DNA from: an uncultured Gemmatimonadota bacterium
Lineage (GTDB): Bacteria > Gemmatimonadota > Gemmatimonadetes > Palauibacterales > Palauibacteraceae
Direction of reading: 5' to 3'
DNA length: 64,000 nucleotides
Assembly (NCBI GenBank): GCA_964613475.1
Contig: CAZTGV010000002.1
Span: forward strand, 14,453 to 78,452
Under the pieces are notes generated by a model. The model was given only the letters and a program-made list of their open reading frames with translations, was not told where the DNA came from and made no database searches. The position numbers and the translations under genes were made by a program. Numbering within the stretch: the first letter of the stretch is position 1; every line of letters begins with the position of its first letter. Positions 6,084-41,229 of this stretch are shown here, piece by piece.

Positions 6084-6097
6084 GGGGGGCAGGCGCC

Positions 6098-7312: not shown

Positions 7313-7377
7313 GGCCGTGTCCCGGGGACGGGAGGGGAGTCGGAGACCGCATCACCAGGGAAAGGAAGCGACAGCCG

Positions 7378-9230: not shown

Positions 9231-9281
9231 GGTCCGGACGCTGGTGGGGGTACGCGCCCGGCCCCGGCCGGAGGGGATGAG

Positions 9282-10562: not shown

Positions 10563-10570
10563 CGCCCCCG

Positions 10571-11911
10571 GTGGCGGCGGGCGCCTCGCTCCCCACCGTG
10601 GCGATCGTCGGCCGTCCGAACGTCGGCAAGTCCACCCTCTTCAACCGGATCCTCGGGCGACGCCTGGCGATCGTGGCCGAGCGTCCCGGGGTCACCCGCG
10701 ACCGGCAGTTCGCGGAGGCCGAGTGGGCCGGCCGTCCCTTCCTCCTCGCCGACACCGGCGGGGTGGTGGAGGCGCCGGAGGTGGCGGTGGACGCCGAGGT
10801 CCGGCGCCAGGTCGAGGCCGCCATCGGCCACGCGGATGCGATCCTCTTCGTCACCGACGGCCGACGCGGGGTGCACCCGGTGGACCGGCACGTGGCGGAG
10901 CTGCTCCGGCGCTCCGGCCGCCCGGCCGTGCTGGTGGTGAACAAGCTGGACGAGCTGGCCGGGGCCACCGGACACCTGGAGTTCTACGAGCTCGGGCTCG
11001 GGGACCCGCTGCCGGTGTCCGCCCTGAGCGGGAAGGGGAGCGGCGACGTGCTGGACCGGCTCGTGTCCGTGCTTCCGGCGCCCGGGGCGGAGGCGGCGCG
11101 GGCCGACGTGGCGTTGCGGCTGGCGGTGATCGGCAAGCCGAACGTCGGCAAGTCGAGCTTCGTGAACCGCCTCCTGGGCGAGGAGCGGGTGATCGTGCAC
11201 GAGGAGGCGGGCACCACGCGCGATGCGATCGACACCTTCCTCGAGTTCGAGGGCGCGCGCGTCTGCCTCATCGACACGGCCGGGCTCCGCCGACGCTCCC
11301 GGGTCGACGACCAGGTCGAGTTCTACAGCCGGGTCCGCGCCACGGCGGCGATCCGCCGCGCCGACGTGTGCCTGCTGCTGGCGGACGCCTCCGAGGGGGC
11401 GACGAACCAGGACTTCCGGATCGGGCAGTCGGCGTGGGACGGGGGGTGCGGTCTCGTCTTCGTGGCCAACAAGTGGGACCTGGTGCCGGACCGCGGGCCG
11501 GAGGTGGTCGCCCGCTTCGAACGGGCGCTGCGGGAGCGGGCGTCGTACCTGCGCTGGGTGCCGCTCCTCACCGCCTCGGCGAAGACGGGTCAGCGCGTGC
11601 GCCGGGCCCTCGAGCTCGCCATGGAGGTGCAGGCGCGACGGGAGCGGCGCATCCCCACCGCCGAAGTGAACCGGGTGCTCCGGGAGCTGGTGGGGCGACG
11701 GCAGCCGCCCCAGGGGTCGCGGGGCGACGTGCGCCTCCTGTACGCGAGCCAGGTTTCCACGGCCCCGCCTCTGTTCGTGATCTGGTCCAACCGCCCCCGC
11801 GAGCTGGCGCGCCACTACGTGCGCTACCTGGAGGCCGGCTTCCGCGAGGCGTGGGACTTCCTCGGCACGCCGCTGCGGATCCGGCTCCGGAAGCGGGAGG
11901 AGCGGCGGTGA
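10571..11911 (+). CDS. der: Ribosome-associated GTPase Der/EngA (two GTPase domains + KH-like domain)
   Basis: Two P-loops (GRPNVGKST and GKPNVGKSS), DTGG/DTAG and NKxD motifs. GTG at 10571 is in frame with ORF 9842..11911. Confidence 0.9.
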   Translation: MAAGASLPTVAIVGRPNVGKSTLFNRILGRRLAIVAERPGVTRDRQFAEAEWAGRPFLLADTGGVVEAPEVAVDAEVRRQVEAAIGHADAILFVTDGRRGVHPVDRHVAELLRRSGRPAVLVVNKLDELAGATGHLEFYELGLGDPLPVSALSGKGSGDVLDRLVSVLPAPGAEAARADVALRLAVIGKPNVGKSSFVNRLLGEERVIVHEEAGTTRDAIDTFLEFEGARVCLIDTAGLRRRSRVDDQVEFYSRVRATAAIRRADVCLLLADASEGATNQDFRIGQSAWDGGCGLVFVANKWDLVPDRGPEVVARFERALRERASYLRWVPLLTASAKTGQRVRRALELAMEVQARRERRIPTAEVNRVLRELVGRRQPPQGSRGDVRLLYASQVSTAPPLFVIWSNRPRELARHYVRYLEAGFREAWDFLGTPLRIRLRKREERR

Positions 11912-12531
11912 GCCCCTGGATCCTGCTCCTCGGCGCGTATCTGATCGGCGCGTTCCCGAGCAGTTTTTTAGTCGGACGGGCCCACGGTGTGGACCTGCGG
12001 CGGCAGGGCAGCGGCAACCTGGGCGGGACGAACGCGTACCGGGTGCTCGGCGCGTGGGCCGCGCTCGCGGTCATCCTGCTGGACGTGGCGAAGGGGTTCG
12101 GTCCCGTCTGGTTCTTTCCTCCCTGGGACGCGGCGGCCGATCCCCGCTGGCCGCTCGCCTACGGGCTGGCGGCGGTGGCGGGGCACGTCTGGTCCCCGTT
12201 CACCGGTTTCCGGGGCGGCAAGGGGGTGGCGACCAGCGCCGGCGTGCTCCTCGGCCTGGCGCCGCTCGCGGCCCTCGTCGGCATCCTGGTGTGGATCGGG
12301 GTCGTCCTCGTGGGTCGGATCGCTTCGGTCGCCTCGCTCCTGGCGGCGTTGGCCGTGCCGATCGTCGCGCACCTGTCCGAGGCGGCCCCGGAGACGGTGG
12401 CCTTCGCCGCGGGGTTGGCGGCGCTCGTCTGGTGGACGCACCGGGCGAACATCCGGCGGCTCCTGCGGCGCGAGGAGCTCCGGCTGGGGTCGCCGGCCGA
12501 GCGCGCCGAGCGCGAGGCGAAAGGACGGTGA
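11908..12531 (+). CDS. plsY: Glycerol-3-phosphate acyltransferase PlsY
   Basis: PlsY family membrane protein (GSGNLGGTNAYRVLG, GGKGVAT motifs). GTG start overlaps der stop. Confidence 0.9.
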   Translation: MSPWILLLGAYLIGAFPSSFLVGRAHGVDLRRQGSGNLGGTNAYRVLGAWAALAVILLDVAKGFGPVWFFPPWDAAADPRWPLAYGLAAVAGHVWSPFTGFRGGKGVATSAGVLLGLAPLAALVGILVWIGVVLVGRIASVASLLAALAVPIVAHLSEAAPETVAFAAGLAALVWWTHRANIRRLLRREELRLGSPAERAEREAKGR

Positions 12532-13538
12532 CCGCCCGGCGGGTCGCGGTCCTCGGGGCCGGTGCCTGGGGGACCGCCCTCGGGGACACGCTGGCGCGAA
12601 ACGGCCACCGGGTGGCGCTGTGGGCGCACGACCCTGCGGTGGCGCGGGAGATCGGTGAAACGGCCCGGAACGATGGGTACCTTCCCGGTGTCGACCTGGA
12701 CCCCGGCCTGCGGGCGAGCGGCACGCTCGCCGAGGTCCTCGAGGAGGTGGAGGTCGTGCTTTCCGTGAGCCCCTCCCACGTGGTCCGGTCGGTGCTGGAG
12801 GCGGCTCGGGAGCACCTGGACCGCCCCCTCCTCATCAGCGCCTCCAAGGGAATCGAGATCGAGACGGGCCTCCGGATGAGCGAGGTGATCGGCGAGGCGC
12901 TGGGGCCGTGGGCTGCCGAGGAGGTGGTCGTGCTCTCCGGCCCGAGCTTCGCGGCCGAGCTGGCCCGCCGGCTCCCCACGGCCGTGGTCGCCGCCTCCCT
13001 GTCCGCCGAACGGTCGCGGGCGGTGCAGGAGCTCTTCCAGAACCGTTATTTTCGCATCTACACGCAGTCCGACGTGGTGGGCACCGAGCTGGGCGGATCG
13101 CTCAAGAACGTGCTCGCCCTGGCGGCCGGCATGAGCGACGGGCTGGCGCTCGGCAGCAACGCCCGAGCCGCCCTGATCACGCGGGGGCTGGCGGAGATGA
13201 CCCGCCTGGCCACGCGCCTCGGGGCCCGCGAGAGCACGCTGGCGGGGCTGGCCGGGATCGGGGACGTGGTGCTCACCTGCACGGGCGACCTGAGCCGCAA
13301 CCGCACGGTGGGGGTCGCGATCGGCCGCGGGCGGGCGCCGGAGGCCGTCCTCGGGGAGATGGAGCAGGTGGTCGAGGGCGTGCGGACGGCGCGCGCCGCC
13401 CGCGACCTGGCCCGGCGGCACGGCGTGGAGATGCCGATCGTGGACGCCGTGTGCTCGATCCTGTACGACGGGGTGGCGCCCCGCGAGGCGCTCGACCGGC
13501 TGATGGCGCGCGAACCGAAACCCGAACGGTGGAGCTGA
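12528..13538 (+). CDS. gpsA: NAD(P)H-dependent glycerol-3-phosphate dehydrogenase
   Basis: N-terminal Rossmann GAGAWGTAL, GpsA C-terminal domain. GTGA overlap with plsY. Confidence 0.9.
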   Translation: MTARRVAVLGAGAWGTALGDTLARNGHRVALWAHDPAVAREIGETARNDGYLPGVDLDPGLRASGTLAEVLEEVEVVLSVSPSHVVRSVLEAAREHLDRPLLISASKGIEIETGLRMSEVIGEALGPWAAEEVVVLSGPSFAAELARRLPTAVVAASLSAERSRAVQELFQNRYFRIYTQSDVVGTELGGSLKNVLALAAGMSDGLALGSNARAALITRGLAEMTRLATRLGARESTLAGLAGIGDVVLTCTGDLSRNRTVGVAIGRGRAPEAVLGEMEQVVEGVRTARAARDLARRHGVEMPIVDAVCSILYDGVAPREALDRLMAREPKPERWS

Positions 13539-13542
13539 GGAC

Positions 13543-13905
13543 GTGGACGACCGGATCGCCCCCAAGGAGTACTACTCGATCGGCGAGGTGTGCGAGATCG
13601 TGGACCTCCAGCCGCACGTCCTGCGCTACTGGGAGAGCCAGTTCTCCGTCCTGAACCCTTCCAAGAACCAGGCCGGGAACCGCGTCTACCGGCGCAAGGA
13701 GATCAAGCTCATCCAGCTCCTCCGCCACCTGCTCTACCAGGAGAAGTACACGATCGAGGGGGCGCGCCAGAAGCTGGAGCAGCTCCGCAGCGAAGGGAAG
13801 CTGGGCCGGGCCGCGCGGGTGGCCTGGGACGCCGAGACGATCCGCGACCTGCGGCGGGAGGCGGACGGGCTGGTGGAGCTGTTGACGCTCGACGATGGCG
13901 CGTAG
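13543..13905 (+). CDS. MerR-family HTH transcriptional regulator
   Basis: MerR-type HTH (YSIGEVCEIVDLQPHVLRYWESQF) followed by a coiled-coil segment. Confidence 0.7.
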   Translation: MDDRIAPKEYYSIGEVCEIVDLQPHVLRYWESQFSVLNPSKNQAGNRVYRRKEIKLIQLLRHLLYQEKYTIEGARQKLEQLRSEGKLGRAARVAWDAETIRDLRREADGLVELLTLDDGA

Positions 13906-14725
13906 CGGAACGGACGCGAAGGGAGCCCGGCAGCGAAGCGACGTGGACCGGGTCGGTGGCGGAGGACATCCGCTGCGGCTGCTGATCACCAACGATGACG
14001 GGATCCACGCCCGCGGGCTCGCCGTGCTGGCCGCGGCGGCGCGGTCCCTGGGCGAGGTCTCCATCGTGGCGCCGGACCGCCAGCAGAGCGCCAGCAGCCA
14101 TTCCCTCACGCTCCACCGCCCGCTGCGGGTCACCGAGGTGGAGCGGGGGAGCTGGACGGTGGACGGGACGCCGACCGACTGCGTCCTGCTGGCGGTGAAC
14201 CAGATCCTGGCCCACCGGCCGGACTTCGTGCTCTCGGGGGTGAACCACGGCCCGAACATGGGCGAGGACGTCCTGTACTCGGGCACCGTGGCGGCGGCCA
14301 TGGAGGCCACCATCCTCGGGATTCCCTCGGTGGCCTTCTCGTTCGTGGGCGCCTCTCCGGACCGGCTGGAGGCGTTCGAGGGGCGGATCCGCGTCCTCCT
14401 GCGGGGCCTGGTGGAGCGGGAGGACTTTCCGGACGAGACGTTCTTCAACGTGAACGTCCCCGACCGAGCGGCCGAGGAGATCAAAGGCGTGAAGGTCACG
14501 GCGCTCGGACGCCGGGTCTACTCGGATTCCCTGACGGAGAGCCGGGATCCCCAGGGACGGGAGTACTTCTGGATCGGGGGCGGGGAGTCCCACTGGCGCG
14601 GGCGCGAGGACTCCGACTTCCGGGCGGTACGGGCCGGCTACATCTCGGTCACCCCCCTCCACCTGGATCTGACGAACTTTCGCCTCATGGAGGAGGTGCG
14701 GTCGTGGCCGCTGTCGACGGGCTAG
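13895..14725 (+). CDS. surE: 5'/3'-nucleotidase SurE (start may lie at the internal CTG giving LRLLITNDDG)
   Basis: SurE signature LLITNDDGI and conserved SurE core. The first ~25 aa of the ORF are low-complexity. Confidence 0.85.
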   Translation: MARSGTDAKGARQRSDVDRVGGGGHPLRLLITNDDGIHARGLAVLAAAARSLGEVSIVAPDRQQSASSHSLTLHRPLRVTEVERGSWTVDGTPTDCVLLAVNQILAHRPDFVLSGVNHGPNMGEDVLYSGTVAAAMEATILGIPSVAFSFVGASPDRLEAFEGRIRVLLRGLVEREDFPDETFFNVNVPDRAAEEIKGVKVTALGRRVYSDSLTESRDPQGREYFWIGGGESHWRGREDSDFRAVRAGYISVTPLHLDLTNFRLMEEVRSWPLSTG

Positions 14726-15360
14726 ACGCCTTCCGGCGCGACCGGCGGCGCATGGTGGAGCGGGTGCGCGCCGCCGGTGTGGAGGACCTGGCGATCCTGC
14801 ACGCGCTGGATGCGGTGCCGCGGCACCGGTTCGTCCCGCCCCCGCTCCACGGGCGGGCGTACGACGACGCCGCGCTGCCGATCGGCCACGGGCAGACGAT
14901 ATCGCGCCCGACCGTGCACGCCCTCCACCTGGCGCTCGCCGAGGTGGGGGAGGGGGACCGGGTCCTCGAGATCGGGACGGGATCCGGCTTCCAGACGGCG
15001 CTCCTGGCCACCCTCGGCGCCCGTGTCCACTCGGTGGAGCGGATCGCCGCCCTGGCGGAGGCGGCGCGGGCGCGGCTGGCGGCGCTCGGGCTCTCGGCGG
15101 AGATCCGGGTGGGGGACGGAAGCCTGGGCTGGCCCGAGGCGGCCCCGTTCGACGCCATCCTGGTCGGCGCCGCCGTCCCCTCGGTGCCGCCGGCGCTGGT
15201 CTCGCAGCTGGCGCCCGGCGGTCGGCTGCTCATCCCGGTGGTGGATGGGAGGGGACAGCGGCTCCTCCGACTCCGGCGGGCGGACGGCGGGGACGAGATC
15301 CATACCGAGACGGTGGAGCGCGCCTCCTTCGTCCCGCTGGTGGAGGGAGACGCGCCGTGA
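14704..15360 (+). CDS. pcm: Protein-L-isoaspartate O-methyltransferase
   Basis: SAM motif VLEIGTGSGFQTALLA, PIMT family length. The surE-pcm pairing is classic. Confidence 0.9.
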   Translation: MAAVDGLDAFRRDRRRMVERVRAAGVEDLAILHALDAVPRHRFVPPPLHGRAYDDAALPIGHGQTISRPTVHALHLALAEVGEGDRVLEIGTGSGFQTALLATLGARVHSVERIAALAEAARARLAALGLSAEIRVGDGSLGWPEAAPFDAILVGAAVPSVPPALVSQLAPGGRLLIPVVDGRGQRLLRLRRADGGDEIHTETVERASFVPLVEGDAP

Positions 15361-15998
15361 GCGACGGGGACGGCGCCCTGGCCGCGGAACCGACTTCGCG
15401 GCCGGGACCCCTCCGGCGCCTCTACCACTGGGTCCTCGGCTGGGCGGACCGGCCGGGCGGTCCCGCGGCGCTGACCGGGATCGCCGCCGCCGAGTCCTTC
15501 TTCTTTCCGATCCCCCCGGACGTGCTCCTCATCCCGCTGGCGCTGGGCCGCCCCTACCGGGCGTTCCGCTTCGCGGCGCTCTGCACGGCCGGCTCGGTGG
15601 TCGGCGGAATCGTCGGATACCTGATCGGGAGCAGCCTCTACCACGTCCTCGGGCAGCCCATCCTGGAGCTCTACGGGTACATGGACCAGTATGAGAGGCT
15701 GGGCGGGATGTACGCCGAGCACCTGGTGCTCACTCTCGGGAGCGCCGGGTTCACCCCGATCCCGTACAAGGTGTTCACGATCGCGGCGGGCGCCTTCGAG
15801 GTCCCCTTCCTCGCTTTCGTGGTGATCTCCGCCGTGAGCCGGGGCGCGCGCTTCTTCCTGGTGGCCGGGCTCATCCGGTGGTTCGGCGCTCCGATCCGGA
15901 GCTTCATCGAGCGCTACTTCAACCTGCTGACGATCCTGTTCGTGATTCTTCTGGTGGGAGGCTTCCTGGTGGTCGGATGGCTCACGGGGGCGAATTGA
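15357..15998 (+). CDS. YqaA/COG1238 family inner-membrane protein (SNARE-associated/DedA-like fold)
   Basis: 4-TM topology, ESFFFPIPPDVLLIPL motif typical of YqaA. GTGA overlap with pcm. Confidence 0.75.
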   Translation: MSDGDGALAAEPTSRPGPLRRLYHWVLGWADRPGGPAALTGIAAAESFFFPIPPDVLLIPLALGRPYRAFRFAALCTAGSVVGGIVGYLIGSSLYHVLGQPILELYGYMDQYERLGGMYAEHLVLTLGSAGFTPIPYKVFTIAAGAFEVPFLAFVVISAVSRGARFFLVAGLIRWFGAPIRSFIERYFNLLTILFVILLVGGFLVVGWLTGAN

Positions 15999-16008
15999 CG
16001 TCCCGGAC

Positions 16009-16854
16009 GTGGAGGGGGTAGCTTTGGCGGCCGTTCCCGGGCCAGGGCCGTTCGTCCCCGCGGAGCCGGGACGAACCGGCTCGCCGGACGGCGGTCCGGA
16101 GCCGGCGGACGGGGCTCCGCCGGGCGGCGTGTACGTGCCCTTGCCCTCCACGGCGCGGAGCACCGGTGGTGCGACCGTGGAGCGGGCGGGGGACGCCCCG
16201 GGGGGCGGAACGGCCTCCGGGGCCGGCGGTTCGGCCGGCGCGCCGCGCGACCCGGCCCCGCGGTCGGAGGCCGCGGAGGGCGGGGCTCCCTGGGAGCGGG
16301 CGCCGCGCCCCGCCGCGCCCGGATTGGAGCGCCTGGCGGCGGAGCTCGCCGGGACGGTGCGCACGGTGGTGGACTATCCCGCGCCGGCACAGCGGTTCCA
16401 CGACGTCACCCCGATCTTCCAGGCGCCCGAGCTGTTCCGGGGGACGGTGGAGGCGCTCGCGGAGGAGGCGCGCCGCCGGGGCGCGGAGGTCGTGGCAGGC
16501 ATCGATCCCCGTGGGTTGCTCCTGGGGCCGTGCGTGGCGCTTCGGCTCGGGCTCCCGTTCGTGCCGGTCGCCGCCCCGGGCACGCTGCCGGGGGACACGC
16601 GGGTGGCGGACCGGCGGCTGGAGCGCGCCGTGCCGCTCCGTCTGGCCGTGCAGCGCGGGCGGCTACGGTCCGGCGAGCGGGTTCTCCTGGTAGACGACCT
16701 GCTGGTCACCGGGGCCACGGCCGCGACCGCCGCGGGTCTCCTGGAGGAGGTCGGCGGCATCGTGGCCGGCGTGGCGTTCGTGGCGGAGGTGGAGCGCGGA
16801 GGGGGGCGTCGCCGCCTTGGGCGCTACAACGTATTTTCGATCCTGGCCTTGTGA
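16009..16854 (+). CDS. apt: Adenine phosphoribosyltransferase with ~105-aa Pro/Gly-rich N-terminal extension (alternative start TTG 16324 gives a canonical 176-aa Apt)
   Basis: C-terminal 175 aa carry the Apt PRTase core (VLLVDDLLVTGATAATAAGLLEE PRPP-binding motif). Upstream in-frame part has high GC3 but low complexity. Confidence 0.8.
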   Translation: MEGVALAAVPGPGPFVPAEPGRTGSPDGGPEPADGAPPGGVYVPLPSTARSTGGATVERAGDAPGGGTASGAGGSAGAPRDPAPRSEAAEGGAPWERAPRPAAPGLERLAAELAGTVRTVVDYPAPAQRFHDVTPIFQAPELFRGTVEALAEEARRRGAEVVAGIDPRGLLLGPCVALRLGLPFVPVAAPGTLPGDTRVADRRLERAVPLRLAVQRGRLRSGERVLLVDDLLVTGATAATAAGLLEEVGGIVAGVAFVAEVERGGGRRRLGRYNVFSILAL

Positions 16855-16886
16855 GCATTCACCTGAAGTCTGTTTAGAGGAGCGGC

Positions 16887-17678
16887 ATGGCGGATCCGCT
16901 GGCGAAGGAGCGGAGGGGCGAGGGAGCGACCGGGCGCGAGGACGCCTTCGTCGAAGGGATCTTCCGGTTCTGGACGTGGGTCCAGGCGAACGCGCGGGCC
17001 GTCATCGTGGGTACGGTCCTGATCGTTCTTCTGGCCGCGGGACTCCTGTATTACCGGAGCTACCGCGCCTCCGTCCAGGAACAGGCGGCGGTGGAGCTCC
17101 TGCAGCTCCGCGCCACCGCCGGACAGGACCCGGACCTGCCGGGGCGCCTCGCCTCCTTCATCCGGCGCTTCGGCGGGACGCCGGCCGCCGAGGAGGCGCG
17201 CCTGCTGCTGGCCCGGGTGCAGCTGAACGCCGGACAGCCCGAGGGGGCTCTGGAGACCGTGGAGCCCGTGGCCGACCGCTCGCCGGACACGCCGACCGGC
17301 TACGCCGCCCGCGTGCTCCGCGTCCGCGCCCTCGAGGCGCAGGGAGCCCTGGAGCCGGCGCTCCGGGAGCTGGCCAGCCTGGCCGAACGGGCTCGCTATC
17401 CCTTCCAGCGCCGGGCCGCCGAGGCCGACCGCGCGCGGCTCCTCGTCGAGGCGGGGCGCCTGGAGGAGGCCGAGGCGATCTACGCCCGCCTGGCGGCCGA
17501 GACGGCCGGCACGGGCGAGGACGCCGAGTACCGGGTGCGCCTCGGCGAGTTGCGCGCCCTCATCGCCTCCGGCGGCCGCCCCGAAACGGCGGCGGGGGAC
17601 CCGGACGCCATGCCCGCGCCCGGCTCGGACTCTCCGGAGGAGGCTTCCGGCGCCGCCTCCGCCGAGCCGGGCGGCTGA
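16887..17678 (+). CDS. Membrane-anchored TPR-like protein (YfgM/UPF0070-like)
   Basis: Single N-terminal TM helix (VIVGTVLIVLLAAGLLYY) followed by a helical TPR-like periplasmic domain. Last gene of the + block. Confidence 0.55.
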   Translation: MADPLAKERRGEGATGREDAFVEGIFRFWTWVQANARAVIVGTVLIVLLAAGLLYYRSYRASVQEQAAVELLQLRATAGQDPDLPGRLASFIRRFGGTPAAEEARLLLARVQLNAGQPEGALETVEPVADRSPDTPTGYAARVLRVRALEAQGALEPALRELASLAERARYPFQRRAAEADRARLLVEAGRLEEAEAIYARLAAETAGTGEDAEYRVRLGELRALIASGGRPETAAGDPDAMPAPGSDSPEEASGAASAEPGG

Positions 17679-17790
17679 CGGAGCCTCTCTCCCGTCCCGT
17701 CGTTCCGGTCGGTTCCACCCCCCGCTGGACCCGCCTGACCCGAAATCCGCTCCCGGCCGCTCCTGACACCCGGGCGTGCCCCGAGGGCCG

Positions 17791-17818
17791 ATGGCGCATA
17801 AGATATATTATGTAAACT
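17791..17818. other. dif: Candidate dif site (XerC/XerD chromosome dimer resolution site)
   Basis: ATGGCGCATAA-GATATA-TTATGTAAACT set against E. coli dif GGTGCGCATAA-TGTATA-TTATGTTAAAT. The GCGCATAA XerC-arm core and TTATGT XerD-arm core are conserved with 11+6+11 spacing. It is the only AT-rich island in a 70% GC region and sits exactly at the convergence of the + and - gene blocks. Confidence 0.6.
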
Positions 17819-17932
17819 AGCGCCGCCCGGACGGGGAACCGGAGCCGGAGGCCAGGCCCCCCTGCCTCGCACCCTTTCCTCGACTCTCCGGAGGCCGGTC
17901 GTCGGCAGCCCTTCTGGGCTCGCCTCCGCGCC

Positions 17933-18658
17933 TTACAGGCGCCTGAAGACGGCCTTCAGACGGAGGGCCCACACCCGCCAGACCGCCTCGCGGACGATCG
18001 CGCCGGACATCTTGCTCTCGCCCACGTCGCGATCCACGAAGACGATGGGAATCTCGCCGACCCGAAAGCCCGACTTCCACGCCCGGAAGCTCATCTCGAT
18101 CTGGAAGGCGTAGCCGGTGGAGCCGACGCTCTCGAGGTCTACGCTATCCAACACCGCGCGTCGAAAGCACTTGAAGCCGCTTGTCGCATCCGTCACTGGA
18201 AGTCCGGTGACCCAGCGGGCGTACTTGTTGGCGAGCCAGCTCAGAAGCAGCCGGCCCATGGGCCAGTTGATCACGTTCACGCCCCGCAGATAGCGGGAGC
18301 CGGCGACCACGTCGAAGCGCTCCTCGGCCGCCGCCAGGAGCTCCGGCAGGTGCTTCGGATCGTGGGACAGGTCGGCGTCCATCTCGAAGATGTAGTCGTA
18401 CCCCCGGTCGAGCGCCTCGCGGAACCCCGTCAGGTAGGCCGAGCCCAGGCCGAGCTTGCCCGGCCGGTGGAGCACGTCCACGCGCTCGCTCGCCGCGGCC
18501 AGCCGGTCGGCCACCGCGCCCGTCCCATCGGGGGAGGCGTCGTCGATCACCAGCACGTCCAGCCGCGGGTCCTCCTCGAGCACGCGGGTGACGACCTCCT
18601 CGAGCGTCTCCACCTCGTTGTAGGTGGGGAGGATCACCAGACCGCGCCCGGGCCTCAC
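17933..18658 (-). CDS. GT2 polyprenyl-phosphate sugar synthase (Dpm1/GtrB-like, soluble-type)
   Basis: VILPTYNE...VIDDASPDGT...DADLSHDP motifs of DPM1-like GT2. GTG start with GGAGG RBS. 4-nt overlap with the upstream UPF0104 gene stop. Confidence 0.85.
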   Translation of the reverse strand: MRPGRGLVILPTYNEVETLEEVVTRVLEEDPRLDVLVIDDASPDGTGAVADRLAAASERVDVLHRPGKLGLGSAYLTGFREALDRGYDYIFEMDADLSHDPKHLPELLAAAEERFDVVAGSRYLRGVNVINWPMGRLLLSWLANKYARWVTGLPVTDATSGFKCFRRAVLDSVDLESVGSTGYAFQIEMSFRAWKSGFRVGEIPIVFVDRDVGESKMSGAIVREAVWRVWALRLKAVFRRL

Positions 18659-19662
18659 GCTCCCTCCCCTCCCCGACGGGCGAGCGCCAGGGCCGCCGCC
18701 ACGGCCACCAGCTCGGCGACCGTGGCCCAGATGCGCGCCCCGACCGCGACCAGCGCGGCCACCGGGGCCGGTTGGGGGGTGAGCGCCACCAGCAACCCCG
18801 TCATGGCCCCTTCGCGGACCACCAGACCGCCCGGGGCGAGCACCACCAGGAAGCCGGCCACGTAGCTCGCGGCGAAGATGCCGGTGGCGGCCAGGGGCCC
18901 CGGCGTGGCGGCGGGTCCCACCGCGCCGCGGAGGAAGCACCAGAAGGCCGCCCCGTACAGGAGCCACACGCCGGCCAGGGCGACCCCCGCCCCGAGCAGC
19001 GCGCCCGGGGGGGCGGCCTCGCCGGCGCCGGCCGCCTCCTCTTCGCGCAGCCAGCGGGCGGCGATCCGGGTCGCCCGCCGGACGACGGCCGGATGGAGGA
19101 GGAGCGCCAGCAGGACCCCCACCGCCACGAGCGCCCAGGCCGATCCCGCGATCCGTCCGACCGCGTCCAGGCCCGCCAGGCCGGCGAAGGCGGCGCCCGT
19201 GAGGAGCGTCAGCACCTGCAGCTGGACGCTGGTGGCCACCGCCGCCGAGGCCGAGTGGCCGCGGGCGCGGAGGTAGATGGCCAGCCCCGAGAGCTGCCAG
19301 ACCTTGCCGGGGATGTAGCGCCCGAGGTTGGAGCCCATCCAGGCCGCCACGCCACGGCCCAACCCGATGCGGGCGCCCGTTCCCCGGAAGAGGAAGACCC
19401 ACGCGGCCGCGGTGACCCCGAGGGCCGCGGCCGCCAGGAGCGTGGCGGCGGCCAGCCAGCCGGCGTGCAGCCGCCACGGGAACCCCTGGACCTGCGCCCG
19501 CAGCCGCGACCATTCCCCGAAGCGCTCCGTCAGGAGCAGCGCGACGAAGAGTGCCGCGACCACCAGGAACGCCGCCGCGAGCCAGCGACGCGCTCCCCGA
19601 CGGGACCGGGGACCGAGCCGGCCCGGCTCCGCGCCCCGTCCTTCCCTGCCTCCGCCGCTCAG
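18655..19662 (-). CDS. UPF0104 / lysyl-PG-synthase-TM-like (flippase-like) membrane protein; no canonical start (CTG 19662 overlapping yfhO stop is the only candidate)
   Basis: C-terminal 315 aa of ORF 18655..22074: 8 TM helices with the WRLHAGWLAAATLL and GRYIPGKVWQ-type segments of PF03706. Upstream part of that ORF is shadow of yfhO in another frame. Confidence 0.6.
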   Translation of the reverse strand: MSGGGREGRGAEPGRLGPRSRRGARRWLAAAFLVVAALFVALLLTERFGEWSRLRAQVQGFPWRLHAGWLAAATLLAAAALGVTAAAWVFLFRGTGARIGLGRGVAAWMGSNLGRYIPGKVWQLSGLAIYLRARGHSASAAVATSVQLQVLTLLTGAAFAGLAGLDAVGRIAGSAWALVAVGVLLALLLHPAVVRRATRIAARWLREEEAAGAGEAAPPGALLGAGVALAGVWLLYGAAFWCFLRGAVGPAATPGPLAATGIFAASYVAGFLVVLAPGGLVVREGAMTGLLVALTPQPAPVAALVAVGARIWATVAELVAVAAALALARRGGEGA

Positions 19663-22190
19663 CGGGTCCGCCTCGAGCGTCGCCGGGCGATCGCGAGCCA
19701 CCCGGCGCCCAGCACGAGCCCGGCCAGCGAAGCCGCCGAGAGGACGCGTCCGAGCGCCAGGCCGGGCACCCGATAGGAGAGCCGCACCTCGTGCTCGCCG
19801 GCCGGCACGAGGACGCCCCGGAACGCCCCGTTCGTGCGATAGAGAGGAAGCGCCCGGCCGCCGGATCCCGCGGACCACCCCGGAGCCCACACCTCGCTCA
19901 CGAACAGGAGGCCTTCCCGCTCCGCCGAGACCGAGAGGACCACCTCGTCCGCCGTCCAGCGTGTCAGGCGCGCGGTGCCCCGGCCCGCCGGCGGCGCCTC
20001 CGAAGCCTCGACCACCGCCTCGGCTCGGCCGTCGGACAAGGCGAGGGTCCGCCGGACGGCCTCTTCCGGCTCCGTTACGGCCGAGATGCGCTCCGGGAAC
20101 CAGGCGTGCGGCGCCGCCTCCGCGACCTCGTACATCCGGATCTCCGCCCCCGGTCGTCCGCCGAAGCCGACCGGCCGCAGGAGCGGGACGTCGAGCTCGG
20201 AACGGGTCGTCAGGTACCGGAGGTCGAACATGGGCCACAGCACCGGATGCCGGAACAGCGCCTCGAAGCCCACGCCGCCCACCAGCTCCGCGTACCAGGA
20301 GAGCAGGAACTTCTGGGTGCCCGCGACGGTCGGGACGTCGTGCCGCATGAGATCGTTCGGATGGTAGGTCCCCTCCACGGGCAGGGCGCGCTCTCCGGGC
20401 TCGAGCGACTCCTGGAGGAACGCCACCGGCCCGTCCGCGGTGAAGAAGGGGGCGGCCTCCGCCATCCGGACGAAGCGGGCGTCCACCCGCCACAGGTCGG
20501 CCACCAGGACGAGGAGGAGGACCGGGAGCGGCCACGGGGGTAGGCCCAGGCCACGCGGGCGCGATCCCTCCTTCCCCGCCCCCTCCGGGCCGTCGCCGCC
20601 CCGGCGCGCCGCCCAGGCGGCGGCCAGCACCAGGACCCAGGCCGCCACCAGGAAGCCGCCGGAGGTCCGGAGCGCCCCCTCCAGCTCCGCCGGCGGCGTG
20701 CGCGGCCAGCCGCCCGGGAACCAGGCGTGATAGACGAAGTTCAGCAACCCGCCCGGCGCCAGCAGGGCCGCCAGCCCGAGAACGAGGAAGGGCGCGGCGA
20801 CGCCTCCGAGCGCCCAGGCGGAGAGCGGCCGTTCCCGGGTCCGGATCCGCTCCCACCCGACCCCGGCCAGCAGCGCGACGAACGCCGAGACCGGCGCGAG
20901 CATCATGGAAGGCGCCCGGAAGCTGTCCATCAGCGGGATCGCCGCGTACGCGACCCGGTGGACCGGCGTCGCGCCGCCCAGCGCGAACAGGATCCCCACC
21001 AGCGACGCTCCACCCAGGAACCACACGGTCCCCCGGGACGCCGGCTCCCCCGGCACGCGCCCTCCGACGGAGGCAGCGACCGCCACCACCGCGAGCGCAA
21101 TGGGTACGGCACCCAGATACTCCGTGTGCAGCTTGAACGGGTTCGCGCCCCAGTACGTATCCAGCCCCCCGATCAGGTCGGGCAGGAAGAGCGCGGTCAC
21201 TTCCTGCGGCGGGAGCGCCCAGGATGCCGCGAACTCGTAGCCCTCCTCGGCCGCGGCCCGCACGACGTGCTCGAGCAGCGCCGCGGTGGGGACGATCTGG
21301 ACCGCGGCCAATCCGGCGGCGAGGCCGAACGCCCCCGCCACCCACAGGGCGCGCCGCCAGGGCGCCCGCTGCGCCGCGCGGGCGGGTCCGCGCTCGACCC
21401 GGGAAGCCGAGCGCCCCCCCGCCGGCTCGGCCGCCGCCGTCCGGTGGATCTCCCACAGCCGGAAGGCCGCGTAGGCGACGAGGGCGAGCGAGGAGAAGTA
21501 CATGACCTGCGCGTGCGGGGTGAGGAGCTGCAGGGCCAGCGCCGCCGCGAGGCCGAGGAACCATCCCGCCTCCCCGCTCCGGAGGCCGCGCTCCAGGAGC
21601 CCCAGCGCCAGCGGGATGAGCACGATCGCGAACATCCGACCGTCGTGCCCGCCGTACAGGGTGGAGAGGAGATAGCCGGAGAACATGAAGGCGAGCCCGC
21701 ACACCGCCGCCGCGGACCGGCCGAACCGGAAGGCGCGGGCCGCGAAGTAGGCGAAGGCGCCGGCCAGGAACAGGTGCAGCACGAAGGTCCAGCCGATCGC
21801 CCGGTGGAGCGGGAGCGCCAGGTAGAGGAGACTCGAGGGATAGAAGAGCGGCCCGGGCAGCGTGGCCAGGAATGGATGGCCCCCGTTCAGGTAGGGATTC
21901 CAGCCCGGGAGCCCGCGCCCGGCGCGCAGCTCCTCGAGCGCGAACCGGCGCAGCGGAAGGCCCTCCAGGATCATGTCGCTCCCGAAGAGCATCCGCTCGG
22001 CGTGGAAGACGAACTCCCGGAAGAAGAGGAGCGCCAGGATGGCCGTGCCGAGCGCGAAGGCGGCGTCCGCCCACCGCCCCCGGCGGACGCCGCCGTTCGG
22101 TGACGCGGGTGCGCCCGAAAGCGGCGTCCGCCCACCTTCCTCCGGCGGCGGCCCCTTCCCCGCCCCGCGCTCCGATCTCGGATGGCTCAT
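19659..22190 (-). CDS. YfhO-like GT-C membrane glycosyltransferase (843 aa)
   Basis: Roughly 13 TM helices plus a large C-terminal extracytoplasmic domain. N-terminal region FGSDMILEGLPLRRF...WNPYLNGGHPF resembles YfhO family. ATG at 22190 (aa 123 of ORF 19659..22556); 4-nt overlap with the methyltransferase stop. Confidence 0.65.
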   Translation of the reverse strand: MSHPRSERGAGKGPPPEEGGRTPLSGAPASPNGGVRRGRWADAAFALGTAILALLFFREFVFHAERMLFGSDMILEGLPLRRFALEELRAGRGLPGWNPYLNGGHPFLATLPGPLFYPSSLLYLALPLHRAIGWTFVLHLFLAGAFAYFAARAFRFGRSAAAVCGLAFMFSGYLLSTLYGGHDGRMFAIVLIPLALGLLERGLRSGEAGWFLGLAAALALQLLTPHAQVMYFSSLALVAYAAFRLWEIHRTAAAEPAGGRSASRVERGPARAAQRAPWRRALWVAGAFGLAAGLAAVQIVPTAALLEHVVRAAAEEGYEFAASWALPPQEVTALFLPDLIGGLDTYWGANPFKLHTEYLGAVPIALAVVAVAASVGGRVPGEPASRGTVWFLGGASLVGILFALGGATPVHRVAYAAIPLMDSFRAPSMMLAPVSAFVALLAGVGWERIRTRERPLSAWALGGVAAPFLVLGLAALLAPGGLLNFVYHAWFPGGWPRTPPAELEGALRTSGGFLVAAWVLVLAAAWAARRGGDGPEGAGKEGSRPRGLGLPPWPLPVLLLVLVADLWRVDARFVRMAEAAPFFTADGPVAFLQESLEPGERALPVEGTYHPNDLMRHDVPTVAGTQKFLLSWYAELVGGVGFEALFRHPVLWPMFDLRYLTTRSELDVPLLRPVGFGGRPGAEIRMYEVAEAAPHAWFPERISAVTEPEEAVRRTLALSDGRAEAVVEASEAPPAGRGTARLTRWTADEVVLSVSAEREGLLFVSEVWAPGWSAGSGGRALPLYRTNGAFRGVLVPAGEHEVRLSYRVPGLALGRVLSAASLAGLVLGAGWLAIARRRSRRTR

Positions 22191-23032
22191 GGTTCCGCCG
22201 CCCCTCGCTCCGCCGACGCGGTCCGCGCCCTGCCCGGCTCCGCCGACGCGGTCCGCGGCCCCGGCCGCTCCGCCGGCTTCTCGAGCAGAAAGAACCATTG
22301 CGGCGAGGCCGCGTGCAAGAGCGGCCGCCGGAGGACGCCGGGAAGCGCGCGCAGGAGCCTGGCCGCGATCCGCCACGGCCGGCCCCGGGAGGCGTCCACC
22401 AGCGCCATCGCCCGCTCCGTGCGGTCCCGCACCCGAAAGCCGGCCTCCCGCATCATCCGCAGTAGCGGCCCGCGGGTCCGGAAGCGGATTCCCTCGTAGC
22501 GCCGCCCCCGGCCCGTCCACCGCAGGTAGCGGTCGGCGAGCGGCCGGGGCAGCCAAGAGAGGAACGGGAGCCGGTAGTGCGGCTCCACGACCGCCAACCG
22601 GTTGCCCGCGGCCACGTAGGCCGCGCCGCCGGGGCGCAGCGCGCGGAACGCCTCGCGGAAGAGAGCCCCCTGGGCTTCCACGTGCTCGTACAGGTGGTTG
22701 AGGAGGAGGAAGTCGAGCGCGCCGTCCGCCACCGGAAGCCGGGTCACGTCGGCCACCGCCGTGCCACGTGGATGCTCGATGAACGACCGGTCCAACTCGA
22801 ATCCGTAGATGTATTTGCCTGTCTTGTCCTCGAGCGTCTTCTTGATGAGGCCGGTCCCGGATCCCAGGTCCGCCACCCGGTCGGCTGCGGCCAGCTCATC
22901 GGCGCACAGGCGGAGGATCACCCGGCCCTTCCGGGCCCGTTCGGCCCGGTAGCCGGCCGACCGCAGGCGGCGATCGTACGCGTCGCCCGCCACCCCCGCA
23001 TGACCACCTCCCCCACCCGCGCGGTCGCTCAT
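22187..23032 (-). CDS. Class I SAM-dependent methyltransferase with repeat-containing C-terminus
   Basis: Motif I VADLGSGTG, Methyltransf_11/23-like core. C-terminal RTASAE repeats are encoded by a 30-bp tandem DNA repeat. Confidence 0.75.
   Translation of the reverse strand: MSDRAGGGGGHAGVAGDAYDRRLRSAGYRAERARKGRVILRLCADELAAADRVADLGSGTGLIKKTLEDKTGKYIYGFELDRSFIEHPRGTAVADVTRLPVADGALDFLLLNHLYEHVEAQGALFREAFRALRPGGAAYVAAGNRLAVVEPHYRLPFLSWLPRPLADRYLRWTGRGRRYEGIRFRTRGPLLRMMREAGFRVRDRTERAMALVDASRGRPWRIAARLLRALPGVLRRPLLHAASPQWFFLLEKPAERPGPRTASAEPGRARTASAERGAAEP
22207..22276. repeat. 30-bp tandem direct repeat (about 2.3 copies: GCTCCGCCGACGCGGTCCGCGNCCNNGCCN) inside the 3' end of the methyltransferase gene, overlapping the yfhO start
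   Basis: Two near-identical 21-nt cores at ~22207 and ~22237, with a degenerate third copy at ~22267. They encode RTASAE(P/R)G peptide repeats. Confidence 0.6.
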
Positions 23033-23063
23033 CCGGGTCCGCGGTCCCCGGCCGCGCGGTGTC

Positions 23064-24386
23064 TCATTCCGCCCGGCCGTCCCCGGCGCGGTGCACGATC
23101 GCCCCCCGGTAGCAATCCAGCAGGTCGTCCACCACGCGCTCCCAGGAGAACCGCTCGCTCGCCCATCGCCGGCCCGCCTCGGCCACCCGACGTGCCTCCT
23201 CCGGCGCCGCGGCCACGGCCAGGATCCGCGCCGCCAGCGCCTCCGGGTCCCCCGGCGGCACCAGCCAGCCGGTCTCCCCGTGCCTCACGATGTCCGGAAT
23301 GCCGCCCACCGCGGAGCCGATCACCGGCCGTCCGAAGCGGAGCGCCTCGAGGAGCACCACCCCGAGCCCCTCGGTGTCCCCTTTCCGGTCGACCACCGCG
23401 GGCAGCACGAAGACGTCGCAGCGCGCGTACAGGTCGCGCAGCGTCGCCGCCGGCACGCGGCCGGTGAAGCGGACCCGCTCCTCGACGCCTGCCTCGCGAG
23501 CCGCCCGGCGGATCCGGGGCTCCCGCTCGCCCTCGCCCACCACCGTGAGGCGGGCCGGCCGCTCCCTCAGGATCCGCGGCAGCGCCCGGACCAGGACCTC
23601 CACCCCCTTGCGCTCGACCAGCCGGCCCACGAAGAGGAGCTCGATCGGCCCCTCTCCGGCCAACGGCGGGACGGCCTCGCGCTCCGGACTCTCAGCGCCT
23701 TCGGCCCGCTCGAGCGCGGCGGCGAAGGGGATCACCCGGGCCTCCCTCCCCCCGAGGGCGCGCACCCGCGCCGCCGTGGGCGTCGAGATCGCCGTCACCT
23801 CGTCCGCCGTCCGGATCGTCCAGCGCAAAAAAGATCTCAGCCATCGGAGCCGCCGCTCCACCCAGCGCAGCTCGACGCTGTAGTAGCTGCACACGAGCGC
23901 CGTCCGTCCCCCCGAGGCGCGCCGGGCCGCCGCGCCGAGCAGGGCGTGCGGCATCGGCCAGTGCACGTGGACCACGTCCGGCCGCTCCCGCCCCAGCCGC
24001 CACGAAGCGCCCACCCCCCCGGCCAGGTAGGCCGGCAGCAGGGCGGACCAGGCCGGACGCGCGGCGAGCCGGTCGGGGACCGTCTGGTCGTGGGTGAGCC
24101 GCTCGAGCGGCGCGGGGGCGTACCGGAAGCGGTGGACGGGGATGCCCGGCCCGCGCGCGTCGGACGGATCGGAGCCGCCGGCGCCACTGGCGACGGAGCC
24201 GGAGGCGCCCGTGGCGACGCGGCCGGTGGTGCCGGCGGTCCCCGGCGGTCCGCCCCGGTAGGCCGGCGCCAGCACCTCCGCCTCCACGCCCCGCTCCCGC
24301 AGGCGGCCGAGCAAGGTGACCAGCCAGGGCGTGATCACGTCCTCCGGCCCGCGCGGCCACGCGGTCACCACGTGGATCACCCTCAT
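23064..24386 (-). CDS. GT4 family glycosyltransferase (GT-B, 'glycos_transf_1')
   Basis: C-terminal EX7E-type region (GLGVVLLEALRFGRPVIGSAVGGIPDIV). ATG at 24386 (aa 196 of ORF 23064..24971) overlaps the upstream GT39 stop by 4 nt. Confidence 0.85.
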   Translation of the reverse strand: MRVIHVVTAWPRGPEDVITPWLVTLLGRLRERGVEAEVLAPAYRGGPPGTAGTTGRVATGASGSVASGAGGSDPSDARGPGIPVHRFRYAPAPLERLTHDQTVPDRLAARPAWSALLPAYLAGGVGASWRLGRERPDVVHVHWPMPHALLGAAARRASGGRTALVCSYYSVELRWVERRLRWLRSFLRWTIRTADEVTAISTPTAARVRALGGREARVIPFAAALERAEGAESPEREAVPPLAGEGPIELLFVGRLVERKGVEVLVRALPRILRERPARLTVVGEGEREPRIRRAAREAGVEERVRFTGRVPAATLRDLYARCDVFVLPAVVDRKGDTEGLGVVLLEALRFGRPVIGSAVGGIPDIVRHGETGWLVPPGDPEALAARILAVAAAPEEARRVAEAGRRWASERFSWERVVDDLLDCYRGAIVHRAGDGRAE

Positions 24387-25981
24387 CGTCCCGCGGCACC
24401 CTCCTTCGTCACGGCGTGCGCCGTGCGGGGCGGCGGCAGGAAGCGGAGCACGAGCGTCACCGGATCGCCCCCCTCGTACGCCACGTCGAACCGGCTCCGG
24501 TGGGCGCGGATGGCCGGGAGCAGGTAGCGGAAGGTGGTCCCGCTCACCTGGTCCACCACCACGAAGTCGGCCCCCATCGCCTCCAGGCCGGTGACCACCA
24601 CGTCCGGATCGGTCGAAAAGGGATAGACGTCCCCCCGGCGCCGGCCGACCCAGTAGAAGAGGCTGGGCTTCCGGTTCGCGATTACCGCGTCGGCCGGCGT
24701 ATGCTCTCCGGCCCAGCGCGCCGCCGCGTACAGACTGCCGAAGGCGGGTGGGTCGCAGGGCGTCCCCGACCGGTAGGCGGCCAGGCAACGCGCCCGCTCC
24801 GGGGCCAGCGTCGCGGCCGACCGGACCGCCGGCAGCGCGATCAGGAGGGCGGCCGCGATCGCCGCCGCCGTTCCGCGTCCGGCCCATCGGCGACCCGTCG
24901 CGGCGGCCCCCCCCATCGCGTAGAGCAGCAGGAGCGGCGCGAGCGGCAGGAGGAAGCGGGCATCGGTCCATACCTCAGGCCACAGGAGGATCAGCCCGGC
25001 GTAGAGGGCGGTGAACAGCTCGGGGGCTCCGAGGCGGTGGAGCGCGCGCACGATCCACCCCCCCAGCGCCAGGGCGGCCACGCCGAAGCCGAGCGCCACC
25101 GTCGCGCCGCCCAGCTCGTGGGGCGGCATCCCCGCGAAGGCCGCCGGAAGGACCTCGGAGAGGTAGGCCCACGCGTTCCCGGCGGCCCGGGCCAGAAACT
25201 CCGCCGGCCCGACGGCGCCGGCCGCCGGATCGTAGGGGTCGCGCAGGAGGAGCTCCTCCAGGTAGCCGGCCTGCCCGGGCGGAGCCGCTCGCTGGACCGC
25301 GGCCCACCCGGCCATCGCCGCCGCGGCGGCGCTCGCGGCGGCCGCCGCCCGCCCCCAGCGGCGGGCCAGCAGCGGCAGCGCCACCGCGGCCGCCAGCAGC
25401 GGGAGCCCGGCCGTCCGCGTGAGGAAGGCGGCCACCGCCGCCGCCACCCCGAGCCCGAACGCCCGCGCGCCTTCCTCCTCGGCGCGCTCGAGCCACCGGA
25501 GCGACAGGAGCGCCAGGAGGACGAACGGCGCCTCGGAGAGCACCCAGTGCCCGTAGTCGAGCAGCACGGGGTGGAGCGCCACCAGGCCCGCGGCCAGCAG
25601 GGCCGGGGCGGCCCCGATCAGGCGTCGGCCGAGCCGCGCGGTCAGCCACACCGCACCGGCGGTGCACGCCAGCGAGGCGAGCTTGAAGAGCTGAAGGCCG
25701 CCCAGCCAACCGAGGACCGCCAGACCGGCCGGGTAGAGAGGCGGATACTTGGTGTGGATCGGCGTATCCGGCAGGTAGAGGTCCCGGTAGCCGGCGCCCT
25801 CGCGGAGGGCCTCTCCGAGGAGCATATAGATCGCGTTGTCGCCGCCCGGGTGGAGGATCGGCTCGAAGAGGAGGATGCCGAGCAGCAGGTGCAGCCCGAC
25901 GGCGCCGAGCGCCCAGCCCCGGAAGGAGAGTCCGAGCAGGGACCAGGCGGCGCGAGGGGCCTCCCCCCGCCCCGCGCTCAC
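24383..25981 (-). CDS. GT-C membrane glycosyltransferase, ArnT/PMT-like (GT39/GT83 family)
   Basis: 532 aa with ~11 TM helices. N-terminal loop with conserved acidic/aromatic residues (GDNAIYMLLGEAL...YPPLYP) typical of PMT_2/ArnT-like transferases. GTG start. Confidence 0.7.
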   Translation of the reverse strand: MSAGRGEAPRAAWSLLGLSFRGWALGAVGLHLLLGILLFEPILHPGGDNAIYMLLGEALREGAGYRDLYLPDTPIHTKYPPLYPAGLAVLGWLGGLQLFKLASLACTAGAVWLTARLGRRLIGAAPALLAAGLVALHPVLLDYGHWVLSEAPFVLLALLSLRWLERAEEEGARAFGLGVAAAVAAFLTRTAGLPLLAAAVALPLLARRWGRAAAAASAAAAAMAGWAAVQRAAPPGQAGYLEELLLRDPYDPAAGAVGPAEFLARAAGNAWAYLSEVLPAAFAGMPPHELGGATVALGFGVAALALGGWIVRALHRLGAPELFTALYAGLILLWPEVWTDARFLLPLAPLLLLYAMGGAAATGRRWAGRGTAAAIAAALLIALPAVRSAATLAPERARCLAAYRSGTPCDPPAFGSLYAAARWAGEHTPADAVIANRKPSLFYWVGRRRGDVYPFSTDPDVVVTGLEAMGADFVVVDQVSGTTFRYLLPAIRAHRSRFDVAYEGGDPVTLVLRFLPPPRTAHAVTKEGAAGR

Positions 25982-25985
25982 CCGG

Positions 25986-28384: not shown

Positions 28385-28439
28385 GGATGGCTCCGACCTG
28401 GATGTCCGCGTCTCGAACGATTCGCTGGAAATGCCGCTC

Positions 28440-28520
28440 GCGGTCGGCGCGCTCGGGCCGCCCCCGCCCCGCCCCCCACATGCACACAAACTTCGTACCA
28501 GCAAGATAATCGAACGGGGA
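28440..28520 (-). promoter_or_regulatory. Candidate promoter region for the rpoN-glycosylation operon (AT-richer island in the lptB-rpoN intergenic gap)
   Basis: 227-bp lptB-rpoN gap. On the - strand it reads ...GATTATCTTGCTGGTACGAAGTTTGTGTGCATGTGG..., which contains a TGGTAC-N5-TTGT element resembling but not matching the sigma-54 consensus TGGCAC-N5-TTGC. No clean sigma-70 boxes. Confidence 0.2.
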
Positions 28521-28611
28521 GGCGCGAGCACCCCGCGCTTCCCTACCCCGCCGGAGGCACGGCGGTTCGGGGGCTTCCCGGGCGGCCGGGCGGCCGCGGA
28601 GCGGAAGCGAG

Positions 28612-41210: not shown

Positions 41211-41229
41211 GGGGGGGAGGGGCCGGCGC

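Follow-up and report, generated by a model that had tools for sequence, protein, structure and literature searches.

A very probable chromosomal dif site at a convergent gene junction of an uncultured Gemmatimonadota bacterium, and its conserved surroundings

When replication ends with sister chromosomes fused, the tyrosine recombinases XerC and XerD part them at a site known as dif. We have analyzed a 64-kb stretch of DNA from an uncultured Gemmatimonadota bacterium (contig CAZTGV010000002.1), referred to below as the window, and conclude with high confidence that a 28-bp element on its + strand, ATGGCGCATAAGATATATTATGTAAACT at positions 17791-17818, is the chromosomal dif site of this organism. 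An earlier note, made from the sequence alone, had proposed that this element is a dif-like XerCD recombination site. The proposal is supported by the similarity of the element to known dif sites, by its conservation at orthologous loci and by the presence of an intact XerD gene in the same window.

Read directly from the sequence, the element consists of two arms of 11 bp each that enclose a central region of 6 bp, ATGGCGCATAA-GATATA-TTATGTAAACT, with an inner dyad, CATAA/TTATG. This 11+6+11 bp arrangement is the architecture of dif. The left arm (17791-17801) agrees with the XerC arm of Escherichia coli dif at 8 of 11 positions and is assigned to the XerC type by analogy with that site. The central region (17802-17807), in which strand exchange would take place, has a fixed length of 6 bp and variable letters in relatives. 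The right arm (17808-17818) is of the XerD type and is the same as the XerD-side arms of the Bacillus subtilis site and of the site predicted for Gemmatimonas aurantiaca. When matches with up to 3 mismatches were allowed, ATGGCGCATAAGATATATTATGTAAACT had no counterpart elsewhere in the window, and 100 dinucleotide-preserving shuffles yielded no match at all. Scoring of the arms only, at the 19 specified positions that are common to the relatives, gave a runner-up site in the 64 kb with 6 mismatches. The element contains 8 G+C among its 28 positions (29% GC) and is the lowest-GC 28-mer in a window with an average GC content of ~74%, a value somewhat higher than the ~70% given in the earlier note. 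That note had correctly placed a 28-bp AT-rich element at these coordinates, and had described it as the only AT-rich island. It is indeed the most AT-rich 28-mer and is unique in the window, but 28-mers with a GC content of 36% or less also occur at one further place, near 59124.

To express the likeness to dif we counted identities over the 28 positions, and compared these counts with those at all other positions of the window and in 50 shuffles. The element is identical to E. coli dif at 21 of 28 positions (8/11 in the XerC arm, 4/6 in the centre and 9/11 in the XerD arm), to B. subtilis dif likewise at 21 of 28, and to the predicted dif of G. aurantiaca T-27 at 22 of 28. The best dif match elsewhere in the window reached 15-17 identities (15 with E. 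coli dif), and the maximum in the shuffles was 17. The similarity to the two experimentally validated sites, those of E. coli and B. subtilis, therefore exceeds chance. The alignment to the dif consensus that had been put forward earlier is sound: both inner palindromic cores, GCGCATAA and TTATGT, are preserved, as is the spacing of 6 bp.

Conservation of the element was examined at orthologous loci that were fetched by means of protein homologues of the TPR_21 gene product encoded just upstream, and not by means of the DNA motif. The homologues, from Gemmatimonadota, were 94%, 57%, 47%, 46% and 34% identical to the window's protein, and to these we added the locus of Gemmatimonas phototrophica AP64 and that of a protein which the database lists under the name G. 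aurantiaca (L136). Every relative found in this way that had enough flanking sequence possesses a dif-like 28-mer in the same gap and in the same orientation, so that the conservation expected at the orthologous intergenic position is borne out. Written as XerC-type arm, centre and XerD-type arm, ATGGCGCATAA-GATATA-TTATGTAAACT of the window corresponds to ATGGCGCATAA-GATATA-TTATGTAAACA at locus L012 and to ATGGCGCATAA-TATATA-TTATGTAAACA at L013. At the other loci the right arm is TTATGTAAACT, as in the window, and is preceded by ATGGCGCATAA-CCTATA at L001, ACGGCGCATAA-TGTATA at L008, GAGGCGTATAA-TGTACA at L004, ACTTCGTATAA-GATATA at L010, TATGCGTATAA-TACATG at the G. phototrophica locus (L133, CP011454.1) and TATGCATATAA-TATATG at L136. 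TTATGTAAAC is invariant in 9 of 9 protein-found loci. The central region measures 6 bp in all relatives and its letters vary (GATATA, TATATA, CCTATA, TGTATA, TGTACA, TACATG and others). When the site was aligned together with 60 bp on each side, only the 28-mer itself could be aligned. Across the phylum it is therefore the arms and not the centre that are conserved, in the manner of dif.

A DNA-based survey extends this comparison. The pattern GCGYATAA-N6-TTATGTAAAC was scanned against one genome per species (185,579 species genomes), with matches in at least 119 stretches; those listed have one match each and come mostly from Gemmatimonadota. The source genome is not among the stretches listed, and the most similar DNA found was in two short Logan contigs (91.6% identity) and in a metagenome-assembled genome (77%). 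Among the matches listed are four complete Gemmatimonadota chromosomes (CP070670.1, OZ257156.1 and OY970320.1 are included), each represented by one stretch with one match. In the window's own clade, represented by 19 distinct sequences, the left arm takes the form A[T/C]GGCG[C/T]ATAA, and its positions 1 and 3 are conserved even though the search pattern does not fix them. The information content in this clade is ~2 bits at most positions of the 28-mer, is lower at positions 2, 12, 13 and 16, and is ~0 bits in the flanks. Within the centre, the T-A at positions 3-4 is invariant, and positions 1, 2 and 5 vary. Fixed arms, a free centre and unconserved flanks are what is expected of a Xer site, and are unlike the pattern of an RNA hairpin or a terminator.

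The position of the element is also, as judged locally, the one expected of a terminus. It lies in a convergent intergenic gap (17679-17932) which, measured between the stop codons of the flanking genes, is 254 bp long, in agreement with the earlier estimate of ~250 bp. To its left is the final gene of the + strand block (16887-17678), encoding a YfgM-like TPR_21 protein (Pfam TPR_21, E=9e-17), and to its right is the last gene of the - strand block (17933-18750), encoding a family-2 glycosyltransferase (GT2; Pfam Glycos_transf_2, E=2e-33), for which the start is uncertain and the end coordinate approximate. The GC content by codon position indicates coding on the + strand from position 1 to ~17.7 kb and then on the - strand to 64 kb, as had been claimed for the meeting of 17.7 kb of + genes with 46 kb of - genes. 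GC skew switches at the same place, from +0.058 on the left of the site to -0.066 on the right; in 1-kb bins, 16 of 17 are positive on the left and 43 of 46 negative on the right. The cumulative G-C curve peaks at position 17,016, within 1 kb of the site, and forms a plateau from 16,910 to 17,718, although this is a local maximum and is confounded with gene strand. A change of skew from + to - has the polarity of a terminus and not of an origin, and the sign change in the window is therefore the one expected for a terminus. The neighboring genes encode core housekeeping functions (der, plsY, gpsA, surE and pcm; rpoN, a kdsA-type gene, pyrG, ispF and fabF/G/D), which argues that the window is chromosomal and does not belong to a plasmid or an island.

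Within the phylum, a link to the terminus at the scale of a whole genome is provided by Gemmatimonas. Kono et al. (2011, BMC Genomics 12:19, PMC3025954) predicted dif in 641 organisms, among them one Gemmatimonadetes genome, that of G. aurantiaca T-27. The site predicted there, AATGCGTATAATACATGTTATGTAAACT at 1,930,284, is at an angle of 30.139 and the GC-skew shift point at 30.128, a difference of 0.011 (Additional file 2 of PMC3025954). In G. phototrophica, TATGCGTATAATACATGTTATGTAAACT is found at 2,121,489 of 4,716,552 bp, or 45% of the record, and has the centre and arms of the T-27 prediction. It lies in the syntenic gap, and in loci of the Gemmatimonas lineage the site occupies the same gap as in the window. 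By position, then, the window element seems orthologous to a site that falls, in one complete genome of the phylum, on the skew shift point. Taken together, the placement of the T-27 site at the shift point and the shared synteny serve as the best substitute at hand for a whole-replicon skew test in the window.

If the element is dif, the genome should encode a recombinase able to act on it, and a cognate, full-length XerD is in fact encoded in the window. The gene (38990-40012, - strand), which the earlier note had pointed out as a XerC/D-type recombinase gene 21 kb from the site, contains the Pfam domains Phage_integrase and Phage_int_SAM_1. Its product passes the cut-off of the NCBIfam XerD equivalog model (332.4 bits, cut-off 329.6) and falls below that of the XerC model (306.5 bits, cut-off 335). 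It would be expected to bind the right arm of the site. Residues 50-334 align to E. coli XerD (1A0P) with E=7e-63. The motifs GLRVSEL, GKGSKER, HTLRHSFATHLL, LGH and IYTH are kept, and the catalytic Arg, Lys, His-x-x-Arg, His and Tyr are conserved. The first ~49 residues of the open reading frame (39866-40012) are rich in Arg, Gly and Asp and do not align to E. coli XerD, so the true start of xerD is probably located downstream of the start of the reading frame. The protein is recorded on a contig of 79,113 bp, and its nearest named relatives, at 66-68% identity, are from Candidatus Palauibacter(ales). The distance between xerD and dif, 21 kb in the window, is 24 kb in CAZSCI010000009.1 and 27.5 kb in JBDHIO010000006.1, and the order ispF-VTT-xerD-nitroreductase-DUF5686 is the same in the window (38990-41411) and in these two relatives (L175, L176, L177). 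Since both the linkage and the local gene order are kept, the 21-kb linkage is a feature of the clade. In this respect the window differs from the usual arrangement, because xerD genes were found mostly near the origin by Kono et al., whose set comprised only genomes that have KEGG orthologues of XerCD, G. aurantiaca among them (PMC3025954).

The surroundings of the site are conserved as well. The gene order der-plsY-gpsA-merR-surE-pcm-...-phosphoribosyltransferase-TPR_21 is kept on one strand, and (dapF)-GT2-LPG_synthase-YfhO-methyltransferase-GT4-...-rpoN on the other strand converges upon it (window 9000-29000; L001, L004, L008, L010, L133 and L136). Synteny was counted for those Gemmatimonadota species representatives among the matches listed that had at least 1.5 kb of upstream flank (52) or at least 2.5 kb of downstream flank (37). 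A SurE, phosphoribosyltransferase or TPR_21 gene is found upstream on the same strand in 44 of these 52, and a GT2 gene downstream on the opposite strand in 34 of these 37. The GT2 orthologues in the relatives are 249-271 residues long and are likewise encoded downstream of the site on the opposite strand. dif is thus found in a single intergenic gap across Gemmatimonadota lineages in which the flanking TPR protein is only ~21-57% identical. Our literature searches yielded no account of conserved dif neighborhoods in this phylum. Farther along the window, at 26000-29000, the GC content dips to ~65%, compared with ~74% elsewhere; this dip coincides with rpoN, which encodes sigma-54, and does not resemble a mobile element.

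Several loci recovered in the survey depart from this arrangement. In L066 (4522-6800), L017, L115 and L047, an additional 1-2.5 kb of DNA is present between the TPR_21 gene and dif; L066 is from a Candidatus Palauibacter species with a 28-mer identical to that of the window. L047 also contains, at 303-330 and 1.6 kb upstream of its dif, a half-site that resembles a XerD arm, TTATGTAAATT, accompanied by a degenerate left arm. The extra DNA and the half-site may represent insertions on the XerC side or remnants of Xer-exploiting mobile elements (IMEX). Locus L110 (OZ252239.1), which has the same 28-mer as L013, was considered as a close relative with a complete genome and was rejected on the basis of its GC content of 35-40% and its lack of synteny. 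Within 5706-7656 it has a nearly identical dif, ATGGCGCATAATATATATTATGTAAACA, with a XerD-like gene ~1 kb away whose product is 45% identical to that of the window, and a second, weaker dif-like sequence is present in inverted orientation at a distance of ~90 bp, start to start. Lastly, GCGYATAA-N6-TTATGTAAAC is present in 34 stretches of viral contigs from IMG/VR (L140-L173), with GC contents of 32-68%. Neither the Gemmatimonadota flanking genes nor a XerD-like gene was found in these 34 stretches, and because they have no link to the Gemmatimonadota they are uninformative about the window locus. As dif mimics in various hosts, they are candidate attachment sites of phages or IMEX.

Some observations in the window weigh against the identification of the element as dif, or at least withhold support that might have been anticipated. 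A second tyrosine recombinase was not found in the 64 kb, so that no XerC gene is located there, and ftsK is not present in the window either. The GC skew of the window cannot be separated from gene orientation, since every gene is co-oriented with the presumed direction of replication. Finally, the octamer GGGNAGGG, of the type of the FtsK-orienting polar sequences (KOPS), is oriented toward the site in a ratio of 24:5. In a control that comprised all 56 octamer patterns of the same composition, the pooled ratio was 3.3:1 and many patterns were equally skewed. The polarity of GGGNAGGG therefore tells us no more than base skew and codon usage already do, and does not count as independent evidence of guidance by FtsK. 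An unbiased search of the window for skewed 7- and 8-mers returned codon-usage words only.

The finding of a single tyrosine recombinase gene in the window, 21 kb from the site, raises the question of whether this is a Xer-type site served by non-canonical recombinases, that is by XerD alone or with a partner other than XerC, as in the XerS/difSL, XerH/difH and XerA systems. The linkage over 21-28 kb that is kept in two relatives loosely recalls the linkage of gene and site in single-recombinase systems, and the window XerD scores 306.5 on the XerC model, not far below its 332.4 on the XerD model. In single-recombinase Xer systems the gene is immediately beside the site, which is of atypical length or has nearly symmetric arms. 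The window has none of these properties: 21 kb separate xerD from the site, the site has a length of 28 bp, and its arms differ clearly in their outer halves (ATGGCG versus AAACT). Each arm is separately conserved, as in sites that are recognized by two recombinases. G. aurantiaca, moreover, belongs to the set of Kono et al. that was limited to genomes with XerCD orthologues (PMC3025954). Taking these facts together, we regard such a system as very unlikely here.

The same arms in 34 viral-classed IMG/VR stretches, together with the additional DNA in L066, L017, L115 and L047 and the XerD-arm-like half-site of L047, invite a different interpretation, namely that the element is the attachment or junction site of an IMEX, or a leftover pseudo-dif, and not a working dif. 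Such an element would be expected to leave two copies of the site, one of them often degenerate, on either side of foreign DNA, and neither a second full copy nor a degenerate one was found in the 64 kb. Both flanks consist of conserved core genes in the order seen in distant relatives, so that an inserted element would have no place in the window, and neither GC content nor coding pattern changes across the junction. This interpretation is accordingly highly improbable. A role unrelated to recombination may also be considered, since convergent 3' ends flank the element on both sides, a setting in which terminators would be expected, and since it contains a short dyad; it might be a chance AT-rich palindrome, a bidirectional terminator or the operator of another DNA-binding protein. 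Inspection of the gap region revealed no terminator-like hairpin with a T-run. No promoter-like or terminator-like site was found in 17500-18100, and no Rfam match with E≤1 in 17000-18600. The dyad is AT-rich and short, at 5-6 bp; the arms of the site retain their sequence, with no compensatory changes, and its centre varies freely. The identity to dif sites from three other phyla, at 21-22 of 28 positions, far exceeds what chance would give, and an explanation of this kind is hardly credible.

We return, then, to the conclusion that the element is a chromosomal dif. By analogy with E. coli and B. subtilis, its use may be pictured as follows. After an odd number of crossovers between sister chromosomes a dimer would be formed, and the two copies of dif would be brought together at the division septum. 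The left arm, ATGGCGCATAA, would be bound by XerC, and the right arm, TTATGTAAACT, by the XerD whose gene is 21 kb away. Once activated by FtsK, XerD would exchange one pair of strands first, at the border of the 6-bp centre, and XerC would then resolve the Holliday junction to yield two monomers. The assignment of each arm to its protein, the participation of XerC and FtsK and the recombination reaction itself are all drawn from this analogy, and we infer them for the window on that basis.

A further feature of the locus is seen in sister lineages. In the Gemmatimonadaceae, Gemmatimonas and Longimicrobium lineages, the XerD arm is followed at a fixed distance (+8 to +25) by an 18-bp extension, gGTGGAaAAcTGTGGanAAc, which starts exactly 8 bp past the arm and resembles two DnaA-box-like repeats; TGTGGATAA is the reverse complement of the DnaA box. 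Among the loci compared, the extension is present at L133 (10914-10945), L136, L010, L061, L064, L074, L086, L088, L108, L130 and ~35 other loci, and the second box is found at +15/+16 in 35-37 of 48 distinct sequences. Most positions from +10 to +24 carry more than 1 bit of information, against ~0 from +27 onward and on the left flank. Of the 48 occurrences of TGTGGRDAA on either strand of 384 kb of flanking DNA, 40 are no more than 60 bp to the right of dif and 8 are elsewhere. Neither the window nor its clade has the extension, nor do dif loci of other phyla, and Rfam gave no match for it. Because it is located between two convergent 3' ends, a role as a promoter is unlikely. We found no description of DnaA boxes beside dif in literature searches and, to our knowledge, chromosomal dif sites are generally thought to be independent of accessory DNA. 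It is conceivable, though on the whole doubtful, that dif in the Gemmatimonadota is more than a free-floating marker of the terminus, being locked into one gap and, where the extension is present, possibly flanked on the XerD side by the target of an accessory factor, DnaA or another protein. If so, the window's clade would either have lost the extension or never have gained it.

As a whole, and chiefly as a matter of annotation, these results very probably place the replication terminus of an uncultured Gemmatimonadota chromosome at this site, which would set the orientation of the replichores on the contig. They also supply a plausible substrate for the XerD encoded 21 kb away. The consensus of the window's clade, A[T/C]GGCG[C/T]ATAA-NNTANN-TTATGTAAAC[T/A], should permit termini to be located in fragmentary metagenome-assembled genomes and should help in recognizing mis-assemblies or IMEX insertions. 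dif sites are textbook elements, and one had already been predicted for this phylum in 2011. The fixed neighborhood and the extension are less ordinary than the site, and are not properties of the window's own site; if confirmed, a fixed dif neighborhood with a lineage-specific extension on the XerD side would be of interest to specialists in chromosome biology.

Comparison with the known systems shows where the window conforms to precedent and where it departs from it. With the dif/XerC-XerD-FtsK system of E. coli it shares the length of 28 bp, the 11+6+11 arrangement, the intact GCGCATAA core and 21 of 28 positions, as well as the location of the site at a switch in skew and gene orientation and a XerD orthologue with the same catalytic residues. 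It differs from E. coli dif by seven substitutions; the XerD arm of the window is of the TTATGTAAACT type, as in Firmicutes, whereas that of E. coli is TTATGTTAAAT. No KOPS-type polarity distinguishable from that of octamers of the same composition was found in the window. The resemblance to the dif/CodV-RipX system of B. subtilis is concentrated in the centre and the XerD-side arm, where GATATA-TTATGTAAACT and TATATA-TTATGTAAACT agree at 16 of 17 positions. The left arms, ATGGCGCATAA in the window and ACTTCCTAGAA in B. subtilis, agree at 5 of 11 positions by hand count, and the two arms together at 16 of 22. A Firmicutes profile was also the best seed for the prediction of dif in Gemmatimonadetes (Kono et al. 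2011, PMC3025954). The predicted dif of G. aurantiaca T-27 has in common with the window the XerD arm TTATGTAAACT, the inner XerC core GCG(C/T)ATAA and the 6-bp spacing, and differs from it in the outer bases of the XerC arm (ATG in the window, AAT in T-27) and in the centre (GATATA in the window, TACATG in T-27). The Gemmatimonas lineage also has dapF and the conserved 18-bp extension to the right of the site, whereas in the window GT2 is directly downstream. In the plasmid Xer sites cer, which acts with ArgR and PepA, and psi, which acts with ArcA and PepA, the accessory DNA extends over ~180 bp on the XerC side. The window site resembles these in its core architecture and is unlike them in that it has no conserved flank and is surrounded by chromosomal core genes. 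They are nonetheless the nearest precedent for accessory sequence beside a Xer core, with the difference that the extension in the Gemmatimonadaceae is 18 bp long and is located on the XerD side.

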